Source: Yuukianura sp. NJ FZ-2021
Lineage: Eukaryota
Length of the DNA: 64,000 nt
Assembly: GCA_046563655.1 (NCBI GenBank)
Contig: CM102286.1
Coordinates: 8,494,001-8,558,000, forward strand
Direction of reading: 5' to 3'
Shown here piece after piece: positions 45,155 through 64,000 of the stretch. The notes below the pieces were generated by a model. The model saw only the letters and a list, made by a program, of their open reading frames with translations. It was not told the origin of the DNA and searched no databases. The position numbers and the translations under genes are program-made. Each line of letters begins with the position of its first letter. Position 1 is the first letter of the stretch.

Positions 45155-45254
45155 NNNNNNNNNNNNNNNNNNNNNNNNNNNNNNNNNNNNNNNNNNNNNN
45201 NNNNNNNNNNNNNNNNNNNNNNNNNNNNNNNNNNNNNNNNNNNNNNNNNNNNNN
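45155..45254. other. Assembly gap (100 N)
   Basis: Run of exactly 100 N, a conventional placeholder for a gap of unknown size. Confidence 0.99.
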
Positions 45255-47669: not shown

Positions 47670-50600
47670 TTAGTCTTTGCCACTTGACAATTCATCGGCT
47701 TGTTTCCGGAAACAGTCTCCCACTGGGAAGAAGTCCCAGCACCTCTTCTGATACATGTTCCAAACGTAAGTTTCTTGCCCAGTGTACTCCGTGTCAGGTT
47801 TGTTGATCAAGTGCATTATGAAAAACCTGAAAATTTGATCAAGATAGTGTCATTTTCCGGCATTAATGTAACTGATTATTCCGATTTTGAATCAAGGACA
47901 TGAATTTTACATGTAATTGGCCAAATTGTGCTCTTTGAGAACATGAGTTTCAAAGCCATGCGGCACAATATCCAGAAAATCTTTGTTCATCCCGCAAATG
48001 AAGCAGTTGGACTCCATATTTTCTTTGACACTTTCCAATTGATCTCTGAGTTCACCAAAGGCGTCGATAATCAAACCTGAAAATGCAAAAAGATGTCAAA
48101 ATTTGATTTTGAAAGTATTTTTTGTTACTCAATTACCTTGAATGATGGCGAGTAGAATGACAATGACAAAGAAGAAGAAAGTAATGTCGAAAATGATGCG
48201 GTAGACTTCGTACTCATCTCCATCAGGAGATTCAATTTCGTCACCAATCCCTCCACCGGCACGAACGCCTTTGTACAAGTGAAACACGAAGCACTGGAAA
48301 GAACATTATGCAAAAAGACTTTGATTACCATAACTGGAATAAGGTTGAAACTCCCTCTGATGACTACAATTAGTGAAAAATTGGTATGCTGTCACCGTAA
48401 GCATGTCATGACACTTTCTATCCACTTGCTCATCTTCCTCTTGCACATAAAATTTCCGGAAGAAGTTAAACGCAAAGACGGTGTAGATGTAGACGATGAT
48501 AGTCAGCAGCATCACAGTCAGCATTAACTGTAAAGATTATTTGAAAAGCAGTAGTAAATGGCAGGAAATTGTCAATAATTGAACCACGCACTAATTTGTG
48601 AAATTCGTTTTCATAATGACTAAAACACTCTTAAGGCTTGTTTGAAATGAATTCACTTTGTACGTTACGCTATTTCGACACATCGCTTTTGAAAGTTTTG
48701 AAACAACACTCTATTTTTTTTTTACACAAAAGAGAAAGTTTGTAAAGGCAGAGCGGGGCAAATCTCTCAATAAGTTCTCTGTTTTATCTAAATCCTGCGT
48801 AAAACTTATCGTTATAGCACAAGGTGAAAGTTTTGCAACATCATGAAGAAGAAAATTCGAAGCAATTGTTTGTCTTTTTTACATTCCTTGGGGAAAGTTT
48901 AAAATTTCAAAACTCATTACGAAAGCGCTGCTGGACATAGGAAAAAAAGCAAAGATTATTTTAACAAAAAAACATTCGATAAGCTTACTTGTTTTCCGTT
49001 ATGTGTTACGGATTGTAAAATCGTTTTCAGTGCTGGAACTGCAACGGCAATATCCAGGAGATGCGCGGCAAAGAAAAAGAAGTTGACTGTATTTCCAAAA
49101 ACGGACATTCCAAAATACCACAAGCTGTAGAGAAAAGCCTAAGAGAATAAAGTTTCCAAATTTTTATTTAAAAAAAACAAAAGAATGAAAAAATGTTTAG
49201 AAGAAAAAAATTAAAGCTAACCTGGTCCATAAATGTCACACCCACTTTCCAAATTTGATAGCGCCAATCAATCGAACAAATGCTGCAAAATTAAAAAACA
49301 CTCCGTCTTATTTATGCTAAAATGAAATTAATAATCGGTTGACCCTCAAATGTCGCCGAACGTCGCTTACTAATTGACGATTCCTTCCTCCTGTTGCTCT
49401 TGCATTCGAAACGAAGTCTTTTCCATTCCAAGCAACGTACTTATGGAGTCGAAATCATACGCTTCGCTGTATCTTTGTCTAACTTTCTTCTTGACAAATT
49501 TATCCCAGTAATTGACAGGAAAGCACTTGGCGGATATCACCAGTCGGTCCCACATTCCGTTAAAACCGCCGTCACTTGGTTGCTCAACGATGTACAGACC
49601 TTCAAATTCCAGCTTCCTGGCAATTTCCTTTTCCCGCTTGAAGATGGCCAATGGCACCTATGGGACATACGAGTTTTGGGAATCAAAAGTCAATTTTAAA
49701 CAACTGAAGCGAAGGCGTTCTAAGAATACTGAAACTTCGTTCCGTGATGGTGTGAATTAAATTTACCTTCAAATGGTAATATGCAACCAGCATTGCCAGG
49801 GATACAATTGAATGAATAATGGCCAATATCCGTATGGTGGGAGCCAAATAAAACAACTTTTCATCCATATGAACCAGTTCCGGAGCGTCTTCATCCCCAT
49901 CCCCGTCGTCTTCGCCTATTCCGGATCCTTCGAGGTCAGCGCCCCCTGACCCCTCAAATCCTGAACCTTCTTCGCCATCGTCATCTAAGCCTTCAGCTAG
50001 TGAAGTTGCTTTGAAGAACAGGAGCATGAAGTTGATCACAAATGCCAAGACGAGGGCGACAATTTTGAGGTTATAAAAGTTTCTGGCCAAGAAACTGACG
50101 AGTTGCTTCACATATTCTCCAAAGTTAATCTAAAAATTACATATAAAAAGTGTGAAGTAACTAGAAAATAAAATTTAAATATTTAAACATTTTAAAATTT
50201 AAACATAAATTGCTCTAGTTTTAGTAAATTTTAGTATCTACATTACAAAGTTTTAGAATACCGAGTCGATAAACACCGCAATCCTGACGATCGTTCGTGA
50301 AATCGACAGTAAAAGCAGCTTGCGATTAAGTTAATTAGATTATTTAGCACATCATTATCATTTTCATGCCATTTTGGTTAAAAATGATTGAACATTCCGT
50401 GGAAACAGTCTTTTTTTAAAATTATGAAGAATGCATATAGGTCAAACCTGCGACACTGCTGGTGGTTCCTCGGCAACTTGCGACGCTTTGGCTTCGTCCA
50501 GAGCCTTTTGTGCCGATTCCTGTGGCGACGGTGATTCCTGTGGACGAAATTCGCTGTGTACAACAACGGCTTGGCTCTTGGACATCACTGTCGGTGTATC

Positions 50601-53600
50601 AGGTCCTTCCGTTTTACCGCCATGCGCAGTACCCTCATCTTCACCACTAGTCTCGCCACCACTTCGTTCTGCTCCACTTGATTCCGGACTTCCTGGGACA
50701 GACTCGTGCGGTGTAGCAGGATTGTTCTGAGAATTTGGATCGTAGAGTTCGAGTTGTTGTCGTGCAGGATCCTTTGCCTCTTCCGTCGAACCTGGAATAG
50801 GCACTTTCAGAGGTGTCATTTTGGTTGGCGTATCCAAGGTTTCTGCTACTTCAACTTTCTCTTGAGCTGGACCTCGCATAAGATTAATTAGAGCTCGGAA
50901 CAAGTATCTGGCCAAAAACACAAACAATTGTTGGCTTACTGTAATTTGCGCCAGCAATACCTAATTTGTTCAAAGACTTTGTAATTTTGCATGACCTTTT
51001 GACCCGTGTCGTACCTTATGACATAACCTATGCTGTATATTCCATAGTAGAATCCGTAAAACATAATCTTCAAAAAACCGGTAATGAGCTCTGGAGTAGA
51101 CATTTGTTGAAGTTCACGTATCTTTCTTTTTATGTTGGCAGGCGAAAGGATTGCAAACAGGTAGCGAACATTTTCTTTCAACGAAGAGAAAGTCTGCTTC
51201 ACAAGATTTCCCCTGAGAAAATCCGCAAGAATTCATTCATTAAAAATATTAGGAAAATTTTTTAAATCAACAAAATAATCTAACAATTTTCTACAACTTA
51301 AACTTAAAAACACAAGAGTAATAAAAAGCACAATAAAAATTAGTGCAAGTCTATCCAATTTAAAACCGAAGCTATTTTGAACTAACGTCTCACCTTTGTG
51401 ACCACGTGAGGTTACCACTATTTTCACTACAAAAGATAAACAGACAAAACATCTAAAAATCTAACAGTTGAAACATCACAACAAAAATCGGAAATCGAAA
51501 AATCACATCAGTTGAATCTGACAAACAGAATTTGTTGTTTTGGAAAACATGTTTGAAGATTTGTACTTTTCCTGATCGTCATCCAGATTCAATTGATAGG
51601 CAGCTTCACGAGCTTTCCCGCTTCCACTGCTTTCCTCTGTAGCCATCAACCCACTTGCATGTTGCATTTCAAAAATAGCGTCTTCACAGAAATTGACAAA
51701 CGCCTCCAATTTCTCTTTGTCTCCACCTTCGGTAACAATGGAGTAAAAGAAGGCGCGTTTCGATTCCTAGAAGAAGAAACTTCAAACTAAATTTTAGATC
51801 AAAAGCGAATTTCATAATACTTTTTACCTTGATTTGAGGTTTTTCCCATTGTTCAATGTTCGACTCCTTGATTTCAAAGTAAACCCGCTCAATCTTGTGG
51901 CTTCCGCCCATTATTTCAATTCTTCCCAGAAACGGTTCAAAGTAATTCAAAACACTTCCAGCCGTTTCTAGAAACCGTGCGAGTCTGGAAAAAAAAGTGA
52001 CGTAATAATCTATTGCTCATCGTCTACGTCTAGGAAATCTCCTATTCTATCACATCACGTCTGTATAACGCAAAAACATTACATAATCCATGTATAATGA
52101 GACATGATTTGTATATTAATACAAATGACTACTTCACCATGGTTATGCCCTCTTCTGAGACCTTATTTTCAAAACTTGTTGCAATGACTTTACATAAAGT
52201 TTAATAAATCCGTTTTCCACGAACTAACCTGGGTTCGTTTGGCATATGTTCAGACAGGTTGGTGAGAAGAACGGCCAAATTGAAGCCAATATCCTTCGCA
52301 GGGTTATGAAATCTCTCGGTAAATTCTACATAGTCAATCTTTCCGTCGTGATTTGTGTCACAACACATGAGGAGAAAGTTGATTTCTTCTCTGTAAAAGT
52401 AATTAAAAGTTTTAAAAACATAAAATAAACCGGTTGTAAACCGCCCATACTGATAATAGCGAAGCAATAGGCCCCCCGAAGGGGTTTGTTCCCCCACTTT
52501 CCCGCCCACCCCCGGGGGAGTGGGGGCGTGTTTCCCCCACTTTCCCGCCCACCCCCGGGGAGTAGGAGTGTGTTCCCCCCACTCTCCCGCCCCCTCACCA
52601 GGTGGTGTTGACAGGTGAGACGTGACAGGTGACAGGTGACACCCGGCAACTGAGAGGTGACAGGTGACACCCGGTGGACACAGTGCATGTGTGTGAAGTG
52701 TATCTGTCAACTGCGTAATAGATTTTTTGCTAAGCAGAGAATCAAGTCCCATGCCAATTGCCTTTCCAGTCTCACAAGCAGAGTTTTTTGTACCCACACT
52801 GGCATTACAAATGACCTTTGAAATCAATTTTGACCCGGAAGGAGGTGACCTAGGGTCACACATTAAACACAAAAGTTGTTCCACTCGATGAGATGAACAA
52901 CTTTTGTAGAGGTCATTTTCCCGGTTACCGGGGATAAAACCGGTTGACCTTGACCTTTGACCCGGAAGGAGTTGACACCCGGGGGTCATATTCAATAGTG
53001 ACCTAGTCCGGGTCATGACATGGTCACTGGTGAAAACTGGAATCAAATCGGACCAGTAGTTTCTGAGATAATTAATCTGGACAGACAGACAGACGGACAG
53101 ACAGACAGACAGACAAACCTCTTTTATCATAATAGCTTCGCTATTATAATAACTGAAAAGTTTCATTTTTATGTAAAATATTACGCCGTGTAGTTTTTGA
53201 ACTGCTCCATTTTTTCCTTGAACTCTCTTGGAGTTATCCAACCGTCCTTATTGATATCCATTTCCTATTTTAAATGAATTCAACATTAAACTGCAAAATT
53301 TTGTGTAGTTTAGTACTGTAAAAATGAATAAAATAAAGCAAAAAATAAAAACAAAATAAAACCTGGAACGTTGCCGATGATGTCAAATCCTTCAGTTTCA
53401 AAAACATATCGAAATAGCGCAGAATAATCTAAAAACAAATTGTGAAAACACATAATAAATTGACGACAAGCAAAATTAGGTAAGTTGCAACTGAAACTGA
53501 ATAAGATCTGTGACATTAAACATCCATTACAACTTTCTCCATACCCGAAATGCACTACTCGATGTCAATGCTTTCAGTTTTAAAGACGTTTGAATAAACC

Positions 53601-56600
53601 TCAAAATTCTCTTTAGCAGCAGTAGAATTTAAATTTTAAATACTTGTCAATTAACTTCATTTCAACTAATGTGTAAAATTTTTGAATTACCTCTACATTA
53701 GATGCGGATTCCACTAGGGTGTCCACCATTTGCTTGCCAATCGTTCCATTAATTACGTTTCCTAATTAAAGCCAATCCAGGTTTAAGAATTTTAGATTAC
53801 GTCATTAAGCATAATAAATTTGAACCAAATTCTTAACAAAAGAACCATTTTTTACCTTCTAACATTGACAGCATCATGATGACCATGTCTTTCTGTAGAT
53901 TTAGCAACTCCTTCAGAAGATCCACTTGGCTGGAATTCTTGGACAATTTGGCTTGCATGTGAGCAAACAAAAACAGGAATCCTCCAACAGCATCCCAAAG
54001 TCTGATCAAAATTTTCACAAAATGTGCATTCCGTTTTAAATTGTTTAACATTCACATGACAGTTGCAAATTTTGGACAGTTTTGACATGTTACCGAGAAT
54101 GTGCAAGTGCCTGTTGATTTTGCGTGCAGGGCCCTTGAATTACTTCTGTGAGGGTATTGAACACTTGACTGGCAACACCAATGGCTTTGAAAAAATTTGC
54201 TTTCCCAGCAGGGTCAATCAGCTCTTTGCTGGAGTAGTGCCAGTAAAAGTCCATGATGGATTCCTGGCACCAAAATCAAATTCAGTCGAAAATAAGAGTG
54301 TTAAATTATGTTATATTTGAAGTTTTCAAAATTTGAAAGTTAGAACTGCGCATGGTAGAGGGCTACCTGTAATCGTAACAAGTAATCCACAGTGCAAATT
54401 ACGACATTGACTGTTGTCGTATTTCCCGCTTGAGTTCGCAAGTAATTCTGCCAATCTAAAAAAAGATCATTTTGTCACTATTCAATTGAAAACTGATTTT
54501 AATTTTTGTTTTGAACTGAAATTACCCAAGTTGTGCCCTTCACAAGTGAGTTGAATAAACCTAAATAGTGCACATGTAAATTCTGCATCGTGCATATTCT
54601 TTTCACCAGCAGCTCCTTCGGCTCCAACACCAAGTCCTTCCGCTTTCGTATTTCGTTCAAATGCATCCAAATCCAAAACGCTGCAAGAGTTCATCAGGCC
54701 GGCGATTGAAGTAAAAAATCCAACTTCCTTTTTCTCTTTCAAATGATTGAGCATTCCCTGGAAGAATACAAAATACAATAACAAAATTTCATTACAGATT
54801 GCTTGAGAATCTCTGGATGTGAATAATTTTTGCTACCATTTGGACATCAATATTTCCACCGCGTAGAATAGCAATTCCAAGTTCGAGGGTTTTCATGACC
54901 ATGTCGGAGTTGACGCCTTTGCAAGCTGAAATGTGCAGTAAAACCATTTCTGCCACGCCGCGATTTGCCAGTCGTGCTTGATGGAACAACAGTTTCTGTT
55001 TTTCCATTTCTTGTTCCTGAAATCATATTGTTTTGATATGACATTAAAATTGGATAAAATCAAGTTAAAATTATTTTACCATCATCTTTGTCATACTATG
55101 CTGCATGTGAAGCAGAAAGTTACAGTTAATTGTATGGTTATGTTAAATTCAATCTTTCAAGTTCAATCTATTTTGGAGAATTTGAACTCGCAATGAATGA
55201 TTACATGAATAGACGCTCCCCCTTCATCCCCCTCTCCCTCGGCCTCTTCATCCCCTTCCTCTTCTTCTTCACCACAAGATTTAGCCATAACTTCCGCATA
55301 GCACATGTACAATAGATCCTCTTGCAAAGCTCCACTGCGTTCTAAAAGTTAATTAAAACTTAATTAAGTCTTAGTCAATTAACAGTAAATACTCGCACTC
55401 ACCTGTCATGGCTCCACGACAGAACGTAGTTACGAGTTGCGTCACCGGATCAGGCTTGCCTTCCTCTTCCTCCGCCTCTTTTTTCTTCAACTCCGAGTCT
55501 TCAAAGGATTGCTACGAAAAATTTACTAACTTTAAGTTTTACACATTTAATACTTGACTTATTTATTCAAAATTAAGCAGTGGTTTGAAGCAAGCTATCA
55601 TAGCAGGACTTACTGTAAGATCTTCTATCATGACCTCTTGGCCCACATTTTCATCTCCCAACCAAATTTCTCGATATGTACGCAAAAATAGGTTTATAGC
55701 TCGGTGCCTAAGGTAAAGATAGAATCACGTTATGGCATTTTCTGTCCAAAACCAGAAACTGGTTAATTTGAAATGATTTCAAACATGAAAAGATTTTCAA
55801 CACAATTAGTTTAGTACAGTAGTGTTAGTTAAATATTAAAATTTACCGTCGTAAAGTGTAATATGGCGTACAAAAGAAACATGCCAAAGCGGCACGTCGT
55901 CTAGCACAGGACAAAATTTTTCTCCAACCGCTTCGAGCTTTAGGACGATTTTCAGCCTGTTAAAGCGGAAGTTAGTGTTTCACACAATTTGACAAATTCC
56001 TAATACATAGTTAATTTTTCAATTAAGAGTTAAATTTGTAATTACTATTTATTAATTATATTATTAATGTAATTCTATCAAGCATCAAACCAAACAATAC
56101 GAAAACTAAATAAAAAACAGGAAAAAAAACATATAAGTAAAGAATACCTGTGCATAGAATGGAGGGAGGTTTGTCGAAAACCTAAATAATAAATTAAATA
56201 ATTAACTTAACGGTGAACAAAATATTTAACTTAAAGGGGAATTCCTCACATTGGATTACTGCCTTTTTTCTTTGAGAGGAAACGACGGAGCGATAAGCGC
56301 CTTTTTGTTGCTGTTGAGGATGATCAATCTGGGTCAAAACAAAATCAAAATTGAAATAAAAACGAACAAATAATAGAAGGAACTGGCGACTGGGAAGTTA
56401 GTGCAATTGAAATTACCATGTGAAGGCCATAGAGTACTTTGGCCATTGCCACAATCCGATCCACTAGCTCGTCCAGAAGTTGTTGTTTGGTCATGTTCAC
56501 ATTAGGTTGTTTTAGATTAATATCGTTTTCTTCCGTGGGTGACTTCTTACTTCCCAATTTAGAATAAAGGTGATGCTGCCACGACATGGCGTCAGAAGGA

Positions 56601-59600
56601 TCGATTTTATCCGGAAGTGTGAGCTGCGTCTTTGCAAAGTCAACGATTTCTGACTCCACCATTTTCTGTCAGCAAGTTTCAAGCAACACTTTTTAAAGTT
56701 GTTTAATGAAATTTAAATACCATAGATTCTGAAATTTACCTTGAGATATCGATCTTTGCAGTGCTGAACAAGTTCCTGCTCTCTTCCAGCAAATAAGTTT
56801 AAGCCAACTGGAAGAAGACGCTTCAGAGACGCAACCATGAGACTGGACGCAAGCTCTTTATCCTTGTCTCTCTTCTTGTCCCGATGTTTCTTCTTCTTGA
56901 TCTGTATAAAATATTATAAGTAGTATAAATTAATATAGTTATTTCACAATTTCATTTAATAACTTTATAGATAAGTACCTTTCCGCCAGTTTGATTTTGA
57001 GCGGCGTCAGAAATTACAGCTCTCCTAGATGACGTTGGCATAATGAGAGCCATGTTGTCAATTTCGTGAGCCGAAATAAAGTTAGTTTCTTCTTTGCGGA
57101 AAAACTAAGTTGAAATATTACACGCAGAATTAATACTTTCACACTCGTTAACTATTTATAACCATTTTTCCCAGACCTGTGATTTTGACCAAAGGTTAAA
57201 CATTTCTGCGACATGATTGTACAAATGTTCCGCTTCACTTGTGTTATGTTTTAGCCAGTTGTTCCTCTGAAGATCCACATATTTAATTAGGAGAGGGTAG
57301 AACGCATAAATATCTCGGACAAGAAGTTGCCACTCTTCTTGGATTTGACTCTCGACCTAAAACACCACAAAAAATATTTCACACTAGCTTGCAAGTTTGA
57401 AAATTCGGTTTTAAAAAATACCTGCGAGGTGTCTTCCGTAGTGGATTTGAGGAATCCCTTGAGGGACTCTTCCTTGTGAAACATTAAATCAGTCTTTTTG
57501 CGAAGTTTTTCAGCTACTGGTAGGAAGACATCTTTGAGGAGTTCCTCTGATGAGCAAATTATAATCTGTTGTGTGTAGGCCGCAATTCGAGTCATCCAGG
57601 GTGCATTCTCGTTTCCAATATTTGTTCGAATCAGGTTCAGAACATGCTTCAGCAGACAGTTCATATGACTTGCAGTAACCAGCGACACGTACCCGCTTTT
57701 GCAAGAAAAAATTAATAGGGTTAAGTTAACTTAGGGTTTGGTGGTACAATTATGTTTTTTAAACATACTCGTGAGCCACATTCGTAGCATTGTCTGGTCC
57801 TTGACTCCACCAAAATGGTAGATATGAACATAGCATAGGAAGAGCAATGTCTATGATATGAGGAACTTCGTTGTGCGTTTTTCCGGACAGCACAAATTGT
57901 TCAACTTCGGAAATGATTGCATCCAAAGTCGGCATGTTACCGCCCAATCGCTGCATCACATCTGTATATTAAAAGTTTGACAATTAAATCGGGTGTAAAA
58001 TTTTGTGAAGTATGGTTGGAAATACAGACCAGTTCCTGCGGCAGGATCTTGGAGCTTGTGATGTAATGAATGAGGATTGTTTTTGTTCTGCCCTGGTTCT
58101 AGATATGCAATGGGAAATGTCGATGCAAACGCGCCAATGCAGCTTCCGACTTGCGGTCGATAGCGATCAATTTCCTGTCGCACATATTTCCTGTTCTTAG
58201 AAAGCGTCATGTCAGTTCCCAAAGTGTACAAGCTGGACAGCATTTTGTAACTGGCCACTTGGAGGTCATCGACTGAAAACGTGTTTTAAGAAAACAAGTT
58301 TTTAAGTAGAGATATTTCCAATGTGTTTTAACTTGGTTAATTTCTTACGAATAATGTCACTGCCAAATTCGTAGGCCGCCAAGTGGTCGAACAGGGCTGT
58401 CAAAATGGGAAGCACGACTGTGTGAACGTAGTTGAGTGAGCTTGAAGTTTTTAGATGAGTTCCACGGAGATGCGGGTATTTTCGTTCTTGTAAGTTACTA
58501 ATAGTGTGGCCTAAATCTTCTGCACAGTTGTTGAAGAAAGCCAGCATGGAAGTACGGATGAATTCTGGAGAACTCTTGACAATGGATCTGTAATAATGAA
58601 ATATTAAATTAAAATTTAGTACAAATTTGGTAAGTAATATTGAATTGTTTCGTGGTTAAAATTAAAATAATACCTCGCATCAAAAGATTTCATAAGAACT
58701 TGGAGACAAGTGACAGTAATTTTCACGTCGCTTCCGAACGCCGAAAATTTCGTACGCAACAAGGACGCCAAACGACAGAACAAGCTGCAAATGAATTTTT
58801 ATCGTAAAACTTTTCGTGAATGAGTGTCTACTACATTTAGTCAGTATTATAGTTACCTAGCAACCATTTCCTTTTCTCTTAACGAAGCAGCACCACTTGA
58901 AGACAGTGCCGTTGCGACTGCCATAAAATAACCCTTGTGTGTTGTAAAATATTTTTCAAGTAACGGAAGTACTACCTGGAATTAAGAAAATGTTGAAATA
59001 CTTCATCTGCTTCATGTTTGAAGTAGTAGAACGCACCTTTGTAAAAAATTTAACATCTCGAGTTGTATTTTTGAAACTGCCGCGCCGGCTGTATGTGGAA
59101 GACGGCTTCATCATTTTCATATTAACCGAGGCAATATCCAAGTACTGGATGAGTTTCTCCAGCAAGCTAAAAGCAAATCGACGCTCCACTGTTGCCGCGG
59201 TTACTGTCGTTTGATCCAAGTCCATTGGTTGAGTTTTAGCTACACGGTACATGTTGTACCCCTGATACTGGATGTACTTGAGCAGTTCTTGGCAACGCTC
59301 TCTGTCCTTCTTTTTCTCTTTGTCTGTCAGCAAGTCGTACGGAACTAGTTGAGGGTGAGGACTGCCACCTTCAAAATTAAAAAGAAAATCTCACTAAAAA
59401 TTTTGGAAAAAAAATCAAAATAGTTAAAAATACTGTACCAGTTGACTCGATTTCTTCTTTTCTTTTCTTGGCCCAGAGGTCATGAGCATTTTCAGCCAGT
59501 CTTTCAGCCATATTCTGCATTTCACGACTCAGCGTCAAGTTGGTCATGTCAACCGGGTTTGGATTATAATTGAATGGCGTACTTCGGGTATCTCCTCCCT

Positions 59601-62600
59601 ATAGTTAGAAGTTAATTAAAATTCAATTTGTTACTTTCAGTCGCAGTTACTATATTAGCAACAATACAGAATTTACATACAATGCTGGATTTTGAACCGC
59701 GGCGACCATTTCTGTTGGCACTATTCATATCCGAGTCGCCATGTTGAATCGTCCAATTTAGAGCCAATAAAGCTTTGACTGAATCTCGAATTGGCTCCTT
59801 GTACCTTTCCTTTTCCTATTCAATAAAATTTAACGTTATAGATTGAGGATTTGAAATTTGGTGGTAAAAATTTTAGAATTTGGTGGCTGAGTTACGTAAT
59901 CTGTGAGCATGTGGTAAGGCTTCAGACGGGGATGGATCTTGTCGTTCCAGGTGTACTGCTCTCCAAATTGCCAACCGTTGTCCAATTTACGCCCTGCCCA
60001 TGCGTCATGGTAATGTTCCGAGAACTTTTGAATCAGCATGTTCAAATCTTGTGTAATTTGTACTCTGTGGAAAACACAAAAACCCCAACTGTTTAATATG
60101 TTCCTACATGCAGATTTAAAATGCTTCAACAATTTTTACGCATTGGTTTCAATTGGTTCTGGTTGGTATGGTCCACCGGAATCGGAAACAGACGCTTTGA
60201 TAACTTCGTCGTCCCCACCGGCAGATAAGCTGTAGTCAGGAGGTAGAGCACAACCAATCGCACTAAGGCATGGAAGAGCTTTTCCAAACAGTTCTGGATC
60301 GTATTCCTAAACAGTACACCAAACAAAAATGAAATCTAAAAAATTTGAATTTAGTCCAGTAAGTTGAAAATTTTAAAGTCTAACGACGAGCGAGAGTTAT
60401 TACCATTTTAGATAATGAATCAAAAATGTTGCTAAATAACATCATGGTTAAGCGCTTCTCTTCTTCGCTGGCAATTCCATAAACACCTTGTCCGCTCGTT
60501 GAGCCGTAGTATTTTCCGCAGCGCTCATAGTGAAGTGTCAACAGCTATTTCAAAACATTCAAATAGTTTCAATCCAAACGCACAAAGTTTGACAAGATTG
60601 TGAGCAATCCTTCCCTTACCCGGAGAGCAACAGTGGTATACTCGGAAAGCTTTGACACATCGACAGTAAGCTTCCGCAACAATTTCAACAGCATGCTTGG
60701 TTGCATTTCCCTAAGCAGTTTTAAATGATTAGTAAAAACCAATTTTTGAAAAACTAAAAACGTCAACTTTAGCAAAATTCAGTTCCAAACCTTGTCAATG
60801 CCACTAGAAAGTCTGAGACGGCTTCTCGTTGTCCTTTTGTCAGCATTTTTATTTTGGAGAGTCGGTACACTGTATGAAGCGTTGCATCTAACAGGCTCGA
60901 ATAATTGTCCGCCTCTGCGTAAAATTTGGATTGAGCTATAAGCAACGGCAGAATGGAGTTTCCGATGTATCGATTCAACGCAAGACCCATGTCGGAATCT
61001 CCGCCATCGTGCTGTAAAATTCAAAAATTTGTTAATTTTAATTTCACTTCCTTTTTAAATTATTTTACTGTCTTACGCGATCCAACATTGTCGCGGCACG
61101 AAGATCAGGCAGGAAGGCTTCTTCAAGTAACCGGAAAAATAGCTCCCTGTCCTCCATTCCATATACACGCTCCAAAAACAAAACGATACTTTGTTTATGG
61201 CTCGGTACCAAACCTAAGGAACATGAATCAGAGTTAATTAATTATTCGTATGACTAACTTAACAACAAAATGGTCGAGGGTTTCACATTGAATTACCCGG
61301 TGGCATGTCACTCCTTGGCGCTTCATCGAGACCAACCAAGCTTTGCAAGCTAAATCTCAAACTCAAAGCTCCACGAAGATCTTCCAAAGGAACAAGAGAC
61401 CGAAGAATAGCTCTTGCTCGTAGTGATTCATTTTTACCCTGAAATAAAATGAAATAGTAATTGCTGTTATAATAACAATAAAATTGACAACTTTCACTTT
61501 ATCGGTCGCACTAACCTGCGCAATAACTGCCGAGTCCGGAGCGCATCTTCCTAGAAGATCAACCAACGTACAGTAGAAATTCAAAATGGCCGCTCCAGTG
61601 TCAACATAGTCTTCGTCATCATCCCCTTGTGGAAGTGGATGGTCGAAATTTCCAACCATCCCACCATCTTCTGTTCTCGAATTCTTCTGAGCAGCAATCC
61701 TATCGGACATCTTGTTGGCATCTATGATGGCTCTCAAAAGACCTTCACCTTCCCCTCGTAAAGCTGGGCCAAGACATTCCGGTCGTCTTATGAGTAGTCG
61801 AATCACTAAGTTTGCGTTTTCTTCAACACTTTCACCGCTGACCCAGACGCAGAATCGCAGAAAGTCCAAGTAGCGCTCGCCCTCTACTGGATCCCAACCC
61901 AAATCAGGGTATCCCTTTTCAACAAGCTCCGTACTGGACTGGAGTCCGCAACGCGAGAGGTAAATTGCAATCTTTTCAAGAAGATGCTCCCTAGGAACAA
62001 ATAAAGACAAATTAATCTATTCAATTAATTAAAAAAAAGTGAAGATTATGAATGTTAGGGTCACCTTAAAGCCAGAGCAAGTTCGGTATTATCCATTAGC
62101 GAAGAGTATGCGACGTCCAATGGCGTACTTCCACGGAGAGATGGTCTCGACAGCAAAATGTTACTGTGTTCCAAAAGGAATCCTAAGTGCTCAAACATTG
62201 CCTTCTGATTTTGGCGGGAAGTTCGACAGAAATAGCAAAGGAAGCGACAGCAAGCTACAACCATTTCGTGTGATGTGTCCTACAAAAAATTAGCAAATAT
62301 TAACTCAATTAGTAACTTAGTAGTTTTTTCTCAAATTAGAAAACTTGAAAAAAATATTTCAAAGTGAAAAGAAATTTTACTTTCTCTTTTGGCACAAGGT
62401 CCATTTCTTGACCTGGCGAAGAGACTTGCTGACTTTTCTCTTGAGCTTCCGACGTTGCTTGAGCTCTGCCAAGCGTGTTCATCATCAATGCCATCACGTT
62501 TTCATGTACTCTAAGAATTCTTATGAGGTCAGGGTGTTGGAAGAAAACGTAGTTGTTGACCAGTTCCCTGCAACAGCAACAGATTTGAGAATTTTAGAAA

Positions 62601-64000
62601 CTGTGACAATTAGTGCCAAAATAGCAGCAATACCATAAAAGCGTTCTCATGAGTCCCTCTTCTTCTTGTGACATTTGCACAGGTTGAAGTGCACGAATTC
62701 TGCTCAGCCCCACCCACATTTTGTTGATGTGCGGAGTTGTATTGCTGTTGAAAACATAGGATTTTTCTAATGCCCGAATCAACTCTCCGACCATGTCATA
62801 CTGACGCAACAGAAGGCCAAACATTTCCCGTACAAGAAGCGGCGTTTCAAACTGGCTCTCCTCCGCCCAATGCACGATTGTCGTTGTAAGGACTTTTCGA
62901 AATTTTTCTACAAAATACACGAAAGCATTAAAACGTTATTTTTTTTTTGTTTTTATAACCCCAGAACCTTCCGGCAGTAATTCCTTCGGTGGTTCTTCAG
63001 GTTTAGGCTCTTCCGGTGGTTCCAATTTTTTGACAATGTTGAGCATATTTACTACCCGGGTGGCTAGACCAATTTTATTTTCATCTGCATCTTCCTACAA
63101 AACGTAATAAATTGTGTCGGTACTTTTCCACACTTTTTTTTATAGATCAAGTATCACTGCCTATGATTACCCCAGATGGATCCTGCAAGGCTGCCAGAGT
63201 CAACTTGGACATCAATTCGTCATGAAATTCAGTAAGCAATCCGCGCAATTCATCTCCGCATGGACAATTCTCCTTTTCTTCCTCCTCCAAGTTTTTGAAT
63301 CCGAGAATGGCATTAACCTAGTCAAATTAACAAAGAATGTTTTTAGTTAAAAAATTGCAACTAAGAAAATTTTGTTTCACAGTGAGAAGTTAGATTTGTT
63401 TGACAGAGTTCTTACCTGCTCCACTGGTGGACACCGGAACTCCTTCGTTTTCTTAGCCGCAATTGCCGAGGGCAAGTCGGACTGCTTGATTTCAATGTAA
63501 CGTCGTAGCTGATCCTGAATTTTTAGTGAAACAGAATATCATGAATATCAGTACGGTTATTTTGTTTCAACAACGTAAGAATACAATAAGTTATTGAAAA
63601 GCTTTCTTACAGCCTGAATTTCACCAACGTAGTCATGACTGAAAGTGACAATGGCTTCCACACGATGACGAAGTTGGAAGTCGTTCATATGGTGGAGAAG
63701 GTAGCACATTTGCAATTTGACGCCTTCCGCCAATTCCATCTGTAGCAGGCCTTTCCGGTGGTCTTCGCCATCATCCTCGGTTGGAAATCTTTCAAATCGG
63801 AAGACTTCGGCTATTAGAAAAAAAGATTTGGCATTTAGAAAAACGTTTAGCATTTCCGGACCAAATCTTGTCGTTTACATTTCAGTTTTTCGGAGTCCCA
63901 TGTATTGGGGTGGATAACGATCAGCAGCCGTTCCACATCTTCATCTTCGATTACTCCAACTAAAAGTAACTTGTCCAGCAATTTTAGAAGAGGCACAAAC
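47670..64000 (-). CDS. RyR: Ryanodine receptor, 3' half; many short GT-AG introns; continues beyond the window
   Basis: Recognisable RyR segments: [16 protein letters not shown], RyR repeats (HYHDAWA), [14 protein letters not shown]-hands ([15 protein letters not shown]), TM region, filter [11 protein letters not shown]-terminus [27 protein letters not shown] (TAA at 47670-47672). Confidence 0.97.
48137..48293 (-). CDS. RyR: RyR exon: pore helix, selectivity filter and S6
   Basis: [52 protein letters not shown], bounded by AG and GT. Confidence 0.95.
52425..53150. mobile_element. Non-autonomous DINE-1/Helentron-like element in the RyR intron between the EF-hand exons
   Basis: 13-bp subterminal inverted repeats ataatagcgaagc (52453-52465) and gcttcgctattat (53135-53147); terminal hairpin ataatagc-ttc-gctattat; (CAGA)n tract 53079-53116; internal GC-rich tandem repeats. 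Ends approximate. Confidence 0.55.
53363..53428 (-). CDS. RyR: RyR pre-EF-hand exon, canonical variant
   Basis: 66 nt, phase 0-0, [27 protein letters not shown]. Confidence 0.9.
53545..53610 (-). CDS. RyR: RyR pre-EF-hand exon, alternative paralogous variant
   Basis: 66 nt, phase 0-0, [31 protein letters not shown]. Confidence 0.65.
55847..55956 (-). CDS. RyR: RyR calmodulin-binding-domain exon, variant B (single exon)
   Basis: 110 nt, phase 0-2; CTAAC branch site, CAG acceptor, GTAAAT donor; [37 protein letters not shown]. Confidence 0.75.
56148..56328 (-). CDS. RyR: RyR calmodulin-binding-domain variant A (two exons, 56250-56328 and 56148-56181)
   Basis: 79 + 34 nt, overall phase 0-2; [38 protein letters not shown]. 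Confidence 0.85.

Follow-up and report, generated by a model that had tools for sequence, protein, structure and literature searches.

The window analyzed here, a stretch of 64,000 nucleotides from Yuukianura sp. NJ FZ-2021, holds an RyR gene with two related cassettes, A and B, at the site of its calmodulin-binding helix, and we consider it likely that they are a tandem-duplicated, mutually exclusive exon pair that swaps this helix in a single-copy arthropod RyR, giving two channels. The pair would replace a segment of 37 to 38 residues that forms the helix, equivalent to residues 3614-3643 of RyR1, and each mature mRNA would include either cassette A, which a young 68-nt intron divides here, or cassette B. 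An mRNA with both or neither would shift frame and stop early, leaving the two exclusive forms as the only ones to yield a full channel. A would be the slowly changing version, which almost every annotated arthropod RyR has, and B an old copy, evolving faster but retaining the tryptophan anchor, the basic center, the cysteine, and a proline-aromatic motif. The likely role of such a pair would be to let one gene encode two channels differing in the binding of apo-calmodulin and Ca2+-calmodulin and in gating; the use of B, its regulation by tissue, and its effect on calmodulin regulation are what we infer from the data below. Since arthropods have a single RyR gene, alternative exons are the main way to diversify RyR. 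A conserved switch of the calmodulin helix would offer a compact natural experiment in the calmodulin gating of RyR and could explain tissue-specific calcium release in arthropods.

The RyR gene lies on the minus strand of the window, where tblastn with recovered RyR proteins gave identities of 58 to 74%. It is otherwise intact to the C terminus, with no break in the part examined by tblastn. Downstream of its 3' end, the assembly has a gap of 100 N (window positions 45155-45254). The features discussed below, in window coordinates, are as follows.

47679..64000, minus strand: RyR gene, with its C-terminal end at about 47680 and its 5' part beyond the window (tblastn with P0002, P0020, P0026, P0058, P0160, and P0161)
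56417..56665, minus strand: upstream constitutive RyR exon, ending in ...YGLHM in phase 0; acceptor AG at 56667-56666, donor GT at 56416-56415
56250..56328, minus strand: cassette A exon 1 (A1), 79 nt, beginning with IDHPQ and carrying the Y anchor and a basic stretch
56182..56249, minus strand: intron splitting cassette A, 68 nt, phase 1, with GT..AG borders; read-through meets a stop
56148..56181, minus strand: cassette A exon 2 (A2), 34 nt, carrying the F anchor and a TSLH motif
55847..55956, minus strand: cassette B, a single exon of 110 nt, with W...F in 1-17 spacing and a TPYY motif
55614..55707, minus strand: downstream constitutive exon, HRAINLF...EDLT, entered in phase 2; donor GT at 55613-55612

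The exons of both cassettes and their flanks all have AG acceptors and GT donors. Cassettes A (79 + 34 = 113 nt) and B (110 nt) have identical entry and exit phases, from phase 0 to phase 2, and each leaves 2 nt before the downstream exon, whose first base (55707) completes the codon, with HRAINLF following. The upstream exon is 83% identical to P0001 and 74% identical to the Allacma fusca RyR fragment P0002, the downstream exon is 65 to 87% identical across related loci, and A1 aligns with A-type RyR proteins (67% identity with P0026). In a global alignment, A and B share 8 identical residues, and each scores weakly on the profile of the other (13 to 34 bits). The earlier note had described two homologous, phase-fitting cassettes between the ...YGLHM and HRAINLF exons, and exon computation and translation agree with that description. 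The coordinates that it gave for the cassettes stood; outside the range that it covered, the downstream exon is now set to end at 55614 and the upstream exon to start at 56665. The arrangement of two exons for A versus one for B is real as well, and the closest relative, L001, has it too.

Translation of the possible exon combinations left an open frame for A only and B only among those tested. Stops occur within or just after the cassette when A and B are joined (223 nt), when neither is included, when A1 is joined to B, and when A1 stands alone; in the case of A plus B, the stop codon lies inside the next exon, which confirms the frameshift that had been claimed for joint inclusion. Since joint inclusion or joint skipping brings early stops, a full channel is possible from the two exclusive forms alone. 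The reading frame is the sole mechanism of exclusivity that we observe. Steric hindrance is unlikely, because the intron between A2 and B, at 191 nt, is too long for it. Competing RNA pairings are supported neither by inverted repeats, nor by duplex energies, nor by intron conservation. The inverted repeats in 55650-56470 are AT-rich and at chance level, by a rough estimate made without tool computation; intron-intron duplex energies at six loci gave z values between -2.05 and +2.14 relative to mononucleotide shuffles, inconsistent in sign; and comparison at the DNA level with related loci detected no conserved intronic block beyond the close relative L001.

The pair sits between the ...YGLHM and HRAINxF exons, in what is the homolog of the mammalian calmodulin-binding domain. 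When exon B was compared with the PDB, its best match was the 30-residue RyR1 calmodulin-binding peptide 2bcx_B (E value of 2.7e-5), followed by residues 3617-3644 of full-length RyR1 and then by the equivalent place in RyR2 and RyR3. A1 aligns to residues 3576-3600 of RyR2, a match that is weak by itself (E value of 1.7). In the translations, both cassettes place two anchors in 1-17 spacing around an R/K-rich basic center (Y...F in A and W...F in B), just as the earlier note had read them, and its assignment of the cassettes to the RyR calmodulin-binding helix is upheld by these homologies. As far as sequence comparison goes, the resemblance of the cassettes to the RyR calmodulin-binding site is more than chance. 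The calmodulin-binding domain of vertebrate RyR1, RyR2, and RyR3 (RyR1 residues 3614-3643; 2BCX) is a homologous helix with a basic center and with aromatic and hydrophobic anchors 16 residues apart; however, vertebrates diversify the calmodulin site through three paralogous genes, whereas the gene in the window would do so through alternative exons. In its passages on the subject, a 2021 review describes a direct effect of calmodulin on insect RyR as undemonstrated (PMC8301844).

Metagenome contigs were scanned with a profile of the upstream exon, which yielded 44 loci, and the region downstream of the match in each was examined using tblastn, profile HMMs for the two cassette types, and inspection of splice sites. 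A B-type open exon lies downstream of A in 8 of the 44 loci (L002, L004, L005, L009, L010, L024, L025, and L026), which represent six distinct sequences, L024 to L026 being identical in the cassette. In seven of the eight, it also lies upstream of the downstream exon; the L009 contig ends before that exon. All eight B-type exons are preceded by AG, start with a GCN (Ala) codon, are followed by GT, and run from phase 0 to phase 2. Six of them (L002, L005, L009, L024, L025, and L026) match the window in length at 110 nt; that of L010 has 113 nt and that of L004 has 116 nt. The tblastn check of exon B called for earlier thus found it in related loci with splice sites and phase kept. The interval from A to the downstream exon is complete and holds no B-type exon in 18 loci (18 of the 25 complete intervals), which indicates that B is dispensable in many lineages; a further 18 of the 44 loci stop short of where this could be judged.

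At the DNA level, the window and the B-bearing loci can be aligned in their exons alone. Introns are alignable in L001 alone, a close relative whose contig ends before B. Synonymous sites are saturated in B pairs, with dN below dS in the 3 of 10 pairs for which dS was computable. At the protein level, B evolves two to three times faster than A (dN of 0.33 to 0.89 for B versus 0.12 to 0.31 for A). Residues W, A, and C are nevertheless invariant among the B-type exons, which also keep an R/K-K/R-x-A center and a P-x-aromatic motif. Since frame, length, splice sites, and key residues are kept across unalignable introns and saturated dS, B is under selection as coding sequence, and we regard exon B as very probably a functional alternative exon.

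Several minor features of these loci deserve mention. A CTAAC branch-point-like motif occurs within about 25 nt of the B acceptor in five of the seven B exons compared (the window, at 55957-55980, L004, L005, L010, and L024), the seven being that of the window and those of six distinct loci. The pyrimidine tract is poorer at B-type exons than at cassette A, a pattern often met at regulated exons. L007, L008, and L009 share the sequence of the flanking exon and of cassette A; L007 and L008 are intronless with A (transcript-like or a retrocopy), whereas introns and a B-type exon are present in L009. L025 (11870-11932) and L026 (8838-8900) contain, some 6 kb downstream of the genuine B exon, a B-like fragment, interrupted by a stop and scoring 14.7 bits on the B profile, which is either a chance match or a decayed extra copy.

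The contrast drawn in the earlier note between an insect-type A and a vertebrate-like B holds for a few helix positions (W, K-L/I-L, and P-x-Y), but overall the cassettes of vertebrates and other animals are nearer to A. Of the 21 A-type cassettes, nine have Y at position 1, seven have W, and five have another residue; the 10 B-type cassettes all have W there, and position 17 is L in nine of them, with F in the window alone. With W in 7 of 21 A-type cassettes and L as the second anchor in 9 of 10 B-type cassettes, the contrast cannot extend beyond those few positions. Vertebrate-like and other non-arthropod cassettes score at least as high on the A profile as on the B profile. Against six vertebrate-like cassettes, matrix scores are 81 to 98 for the A cassette of the window versus 66 to 80 for its B cassette, while identities number 13 to 15 for A and 14 to 18 for B over the whole cassette, and 11 to 12 for A versus 13 to 15 for B over the 28-residue helix core. 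B is therefore nearer to vertebrate sequences in raw identities of the helix core and not in matrix scores. Four other non-arthropod cassettes are nearer to A on all three measures (identities of 18 to 19 versus 12 to 16; matrix scores of 97 to 109 versus 68 to 84). The vertebrate-like and other-animal type is a mosaic, which has in common with A the xEHPQ start, the QRKRAV-ACFR center, and the LPR end, and with B the W-x-K-L-L/I-S (W-x-K-L-L-S in the vertebrate sequence) and P-L-Y motifs. In its N-terminal third, B has no relation to xDHPQ, the conserved start of A. Overall, these comparisons indicate that A is the conservative descendant and B the divergent copy.

Cassette A is used by nearly all the annotated arthropod RyRs recovered, including those of a beetle, a shrimp, a crab, ticks, spiders, and a horseshoe crab. 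A B-type cassette is present in the RyR gene model of the sea spider Nymphon striatum, which translates it in frame; it maps onto exon B of the window with 46% identity. An exhaustive search with the B-type profile matched 93 proteins at an E value of ≤0.001, comprising three arthropod B-type genomic ORFs, three A-type proteins, two spurious repeat proteins, one odd cassette (P0130), and 84 single-type cassettes of vertebrate-like and other animals, one of which is named, from a trematode (P0089). P0130, a transcript-like fragment of 117 aa, scores 37.7 bits on the B profile and 22.0 bits on the A profile, and its flanks are unlike arthropod RyR. In longer proteins, the B profile gave four matches, namely, three genomic read-through ORFs and the Nymphon model; a search of longer proteins (up to 5000 residues) with the Nymphon region gave two candidates, from a horseshoe crab and a spider, both A-type. 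The arthropod B-type sequences recovered by these protein searches were genomic read-through ORFs, with the exception of the Nymphon model. No transcript-derived one was among the matches, a weak blank given that clustering merges isoforms and that full-length RyRs are too long for the limits used.

A maximum-likelihood tree was built from 48 cassettes; its resolution is limited by an alignment of 38 columns. It places the 21 A-type rows together in a single group (support of 97/88) and the 10 B-type rows, including Nymphon, on one side of a branch supported at 94/91, with long branches. The B-type exons of the insect-like loci L010 and L024 to L026 group with that of the window, and the 17 non-arthropod rows adjoin A. 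The tree is evidence that the B-type cassettes may be taken as one old group that includes the sea spider sequence.

The conservation described above also bears on other explanations of exon B. It may be a silent relic of an old duplication, no longer spliced in, in a gene that makes the A form alone. The six intronless loci (L007, L008, L027, L036, L038, and L043), which are transcript-like or intron-free and belong to the 18 with a complete interval lacking B, all carry A, and none of them has a B-type exon. This fits a relic, as do the loss of B from 18 of the 25 loci with complete intervals, its faster evolution, and a polypyrimidine tract weaker than that of A1. However, B has an open frame, an exact length of 110 nt, the correct phase, and AG and GT sites, and the CTAAC motif stands just upstream in 5/7 B exons; such features, together with the invariant W, A, and C residues and the basic center, would be lost from a neutral relic across unalignable introns and saturated dS. 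We therefore regard a relic as unlikely. Alternatively, B might act mainly as a "poison" exon, its inclusion together with A causing a frameshift, an early stop, and nonsense-mediated decay that lowers RyR, with no B protein that matters. Such a role, for which the stop inside the next exon and an A2-B intron long enough at 191 nt for both cassettes to be spliced in would be suitable, needs just a length indivisible by three. It does not call for a B that is conserved at the protein level in the frame with A skipped (W, R/K-K/R-x-A, C, and P-x-aromatic), that finds its best match in a calmodulin-binding peptide, and that the Nymphon gene model translates in frame, and we judge it very unlikely.

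The pair could also be real and the switch serve a purpose other than calmodulin, either through another partner of the helix, for instance, S100A1, which competes at the RyR calmodulin helix site in vertebrates, or through interdomain contacts. The segment is homologous to one solved with Ca2+-calmodulin (2bcx_B), and calmodulin is the sole partner of the helix documented in the consulted portions of the literature on insect RyR, both of which argue against this explanation and make it highly improbable in our opinion. The points in its favor are an L rather than an F as the second anchor in 9 of 10 B-type cassettes and an N-terminal third of B that is unrelated to the xDHPQ start of A. These same two features mean that the change from A to B is broader than a tuning of two anchors. 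A mutually exclusive pair that swaps the calmodulin-binding helix remains our preferred explanation.

The presence of B-type exons in springtail-like and insect-like loci and of a B-type cassette in the sea spider model leads us to raise, tentatively, the possibility that the A/B pair comes from the arthropod ancestor, far earlier than insects, and that a single-copy RyR has given two channels with different calmodulin control ever since; we hold this somewhat less likely than not. The time span involved would be some 500 million years. If this were the case, splicing in arthropods would parallel the vertebrate gene duplication into RyR1-3, and B would have been lost repeatedly, in mites, ticks, copepod-like crustaceans, and aphids.

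For insect RyR, a second site of mutually exclusive exons, located at the calmodulin site, has already been predicted. As stated in the relevant sections of Troczka et al. 2015 (Gene 556:106; PMC4309888), the site corresponds to residues 3720-3756 of the M. persicae protein (37 aa), homologous to the mammalian calmodulin site; the prediction was based on an alignment of NCBI-predicted isoforms, the legend of Fig. 3 naming Apis, Musca, and Ceratitis; the proposed role was to regulate calmodulin sensitivity; and the alternative exon was not found in the aphid. From its position and length as given there, we infer that this alternative exon is B-type. By the accounts in the sections consulted of PMC4309888 and of Troczka et al. 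2018 (PMC6026295), the insect site and the pair in the window are the same in protein position, one-or-other logic, and proposed role, and the pair is another case of an arrangement already predicted for insects. The splice switch tuning calmodulin that the earlier note suggested is not a new idea either, having been put forward for insects in those sections of PMC4309888. The window differs from the insect site in coming from another lineage (among named matches of the flanking exon, the springtail Allacma fusca comes nearest, at 74%) and, in comparison with the predicted insect isoforms, in the extra intron that splits its A and in the F at the second anchor of its B, where L is usual.

In the same gene, exons a and b of the second SPRY domain of insect RyR are of the same tandem-duplicated, mutually exclusive kind and, in the accounts consulted, experimentally confirmed in many insects. 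That pair (SPRY2) differs, however, in lying at about residues 1135-1167, outside the window, and in the interaction with a different partner proposed for it. The consulted portions of the Bactrocera, Tribolium, and Toxoptera RyR papers describe the SPRY2 pair or optional exons alone. Our literature searches found no further descriptions of the calmodulin-site exon pair and, as judged by titles and abstract openings, no report on RyR splicing in Collembola. What the present analysis adds is the occurrence of B in a springtail-like lineage, the grouping of B-type cassettes into what appears to be one old group with the sea spider, the closer relation of A to the non-arthropod form, and a lineage-specific split of A. 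It carries the prediction made for insects into a hexapod-like lineage of more basal position and hints at a pre-insect origin, without introducing a new principle.

The split of cassette A by the 68-nt intron is common to the window and L001, whose flanking exon is 83% identical and whose introns are alignable. Among the remaining loci where A is complete, most have it as one exon, and the others split it at a later point. To judge from this distribution, the 68-nt intron is a young, lineage-specific one that leaves the logic of the switch unchanged. In the copepod-like loci L028, L029, L031, L032, L039, and L042, A is split by a short intron at a later position, and independent intron gains inside this small cassette seem to recur.
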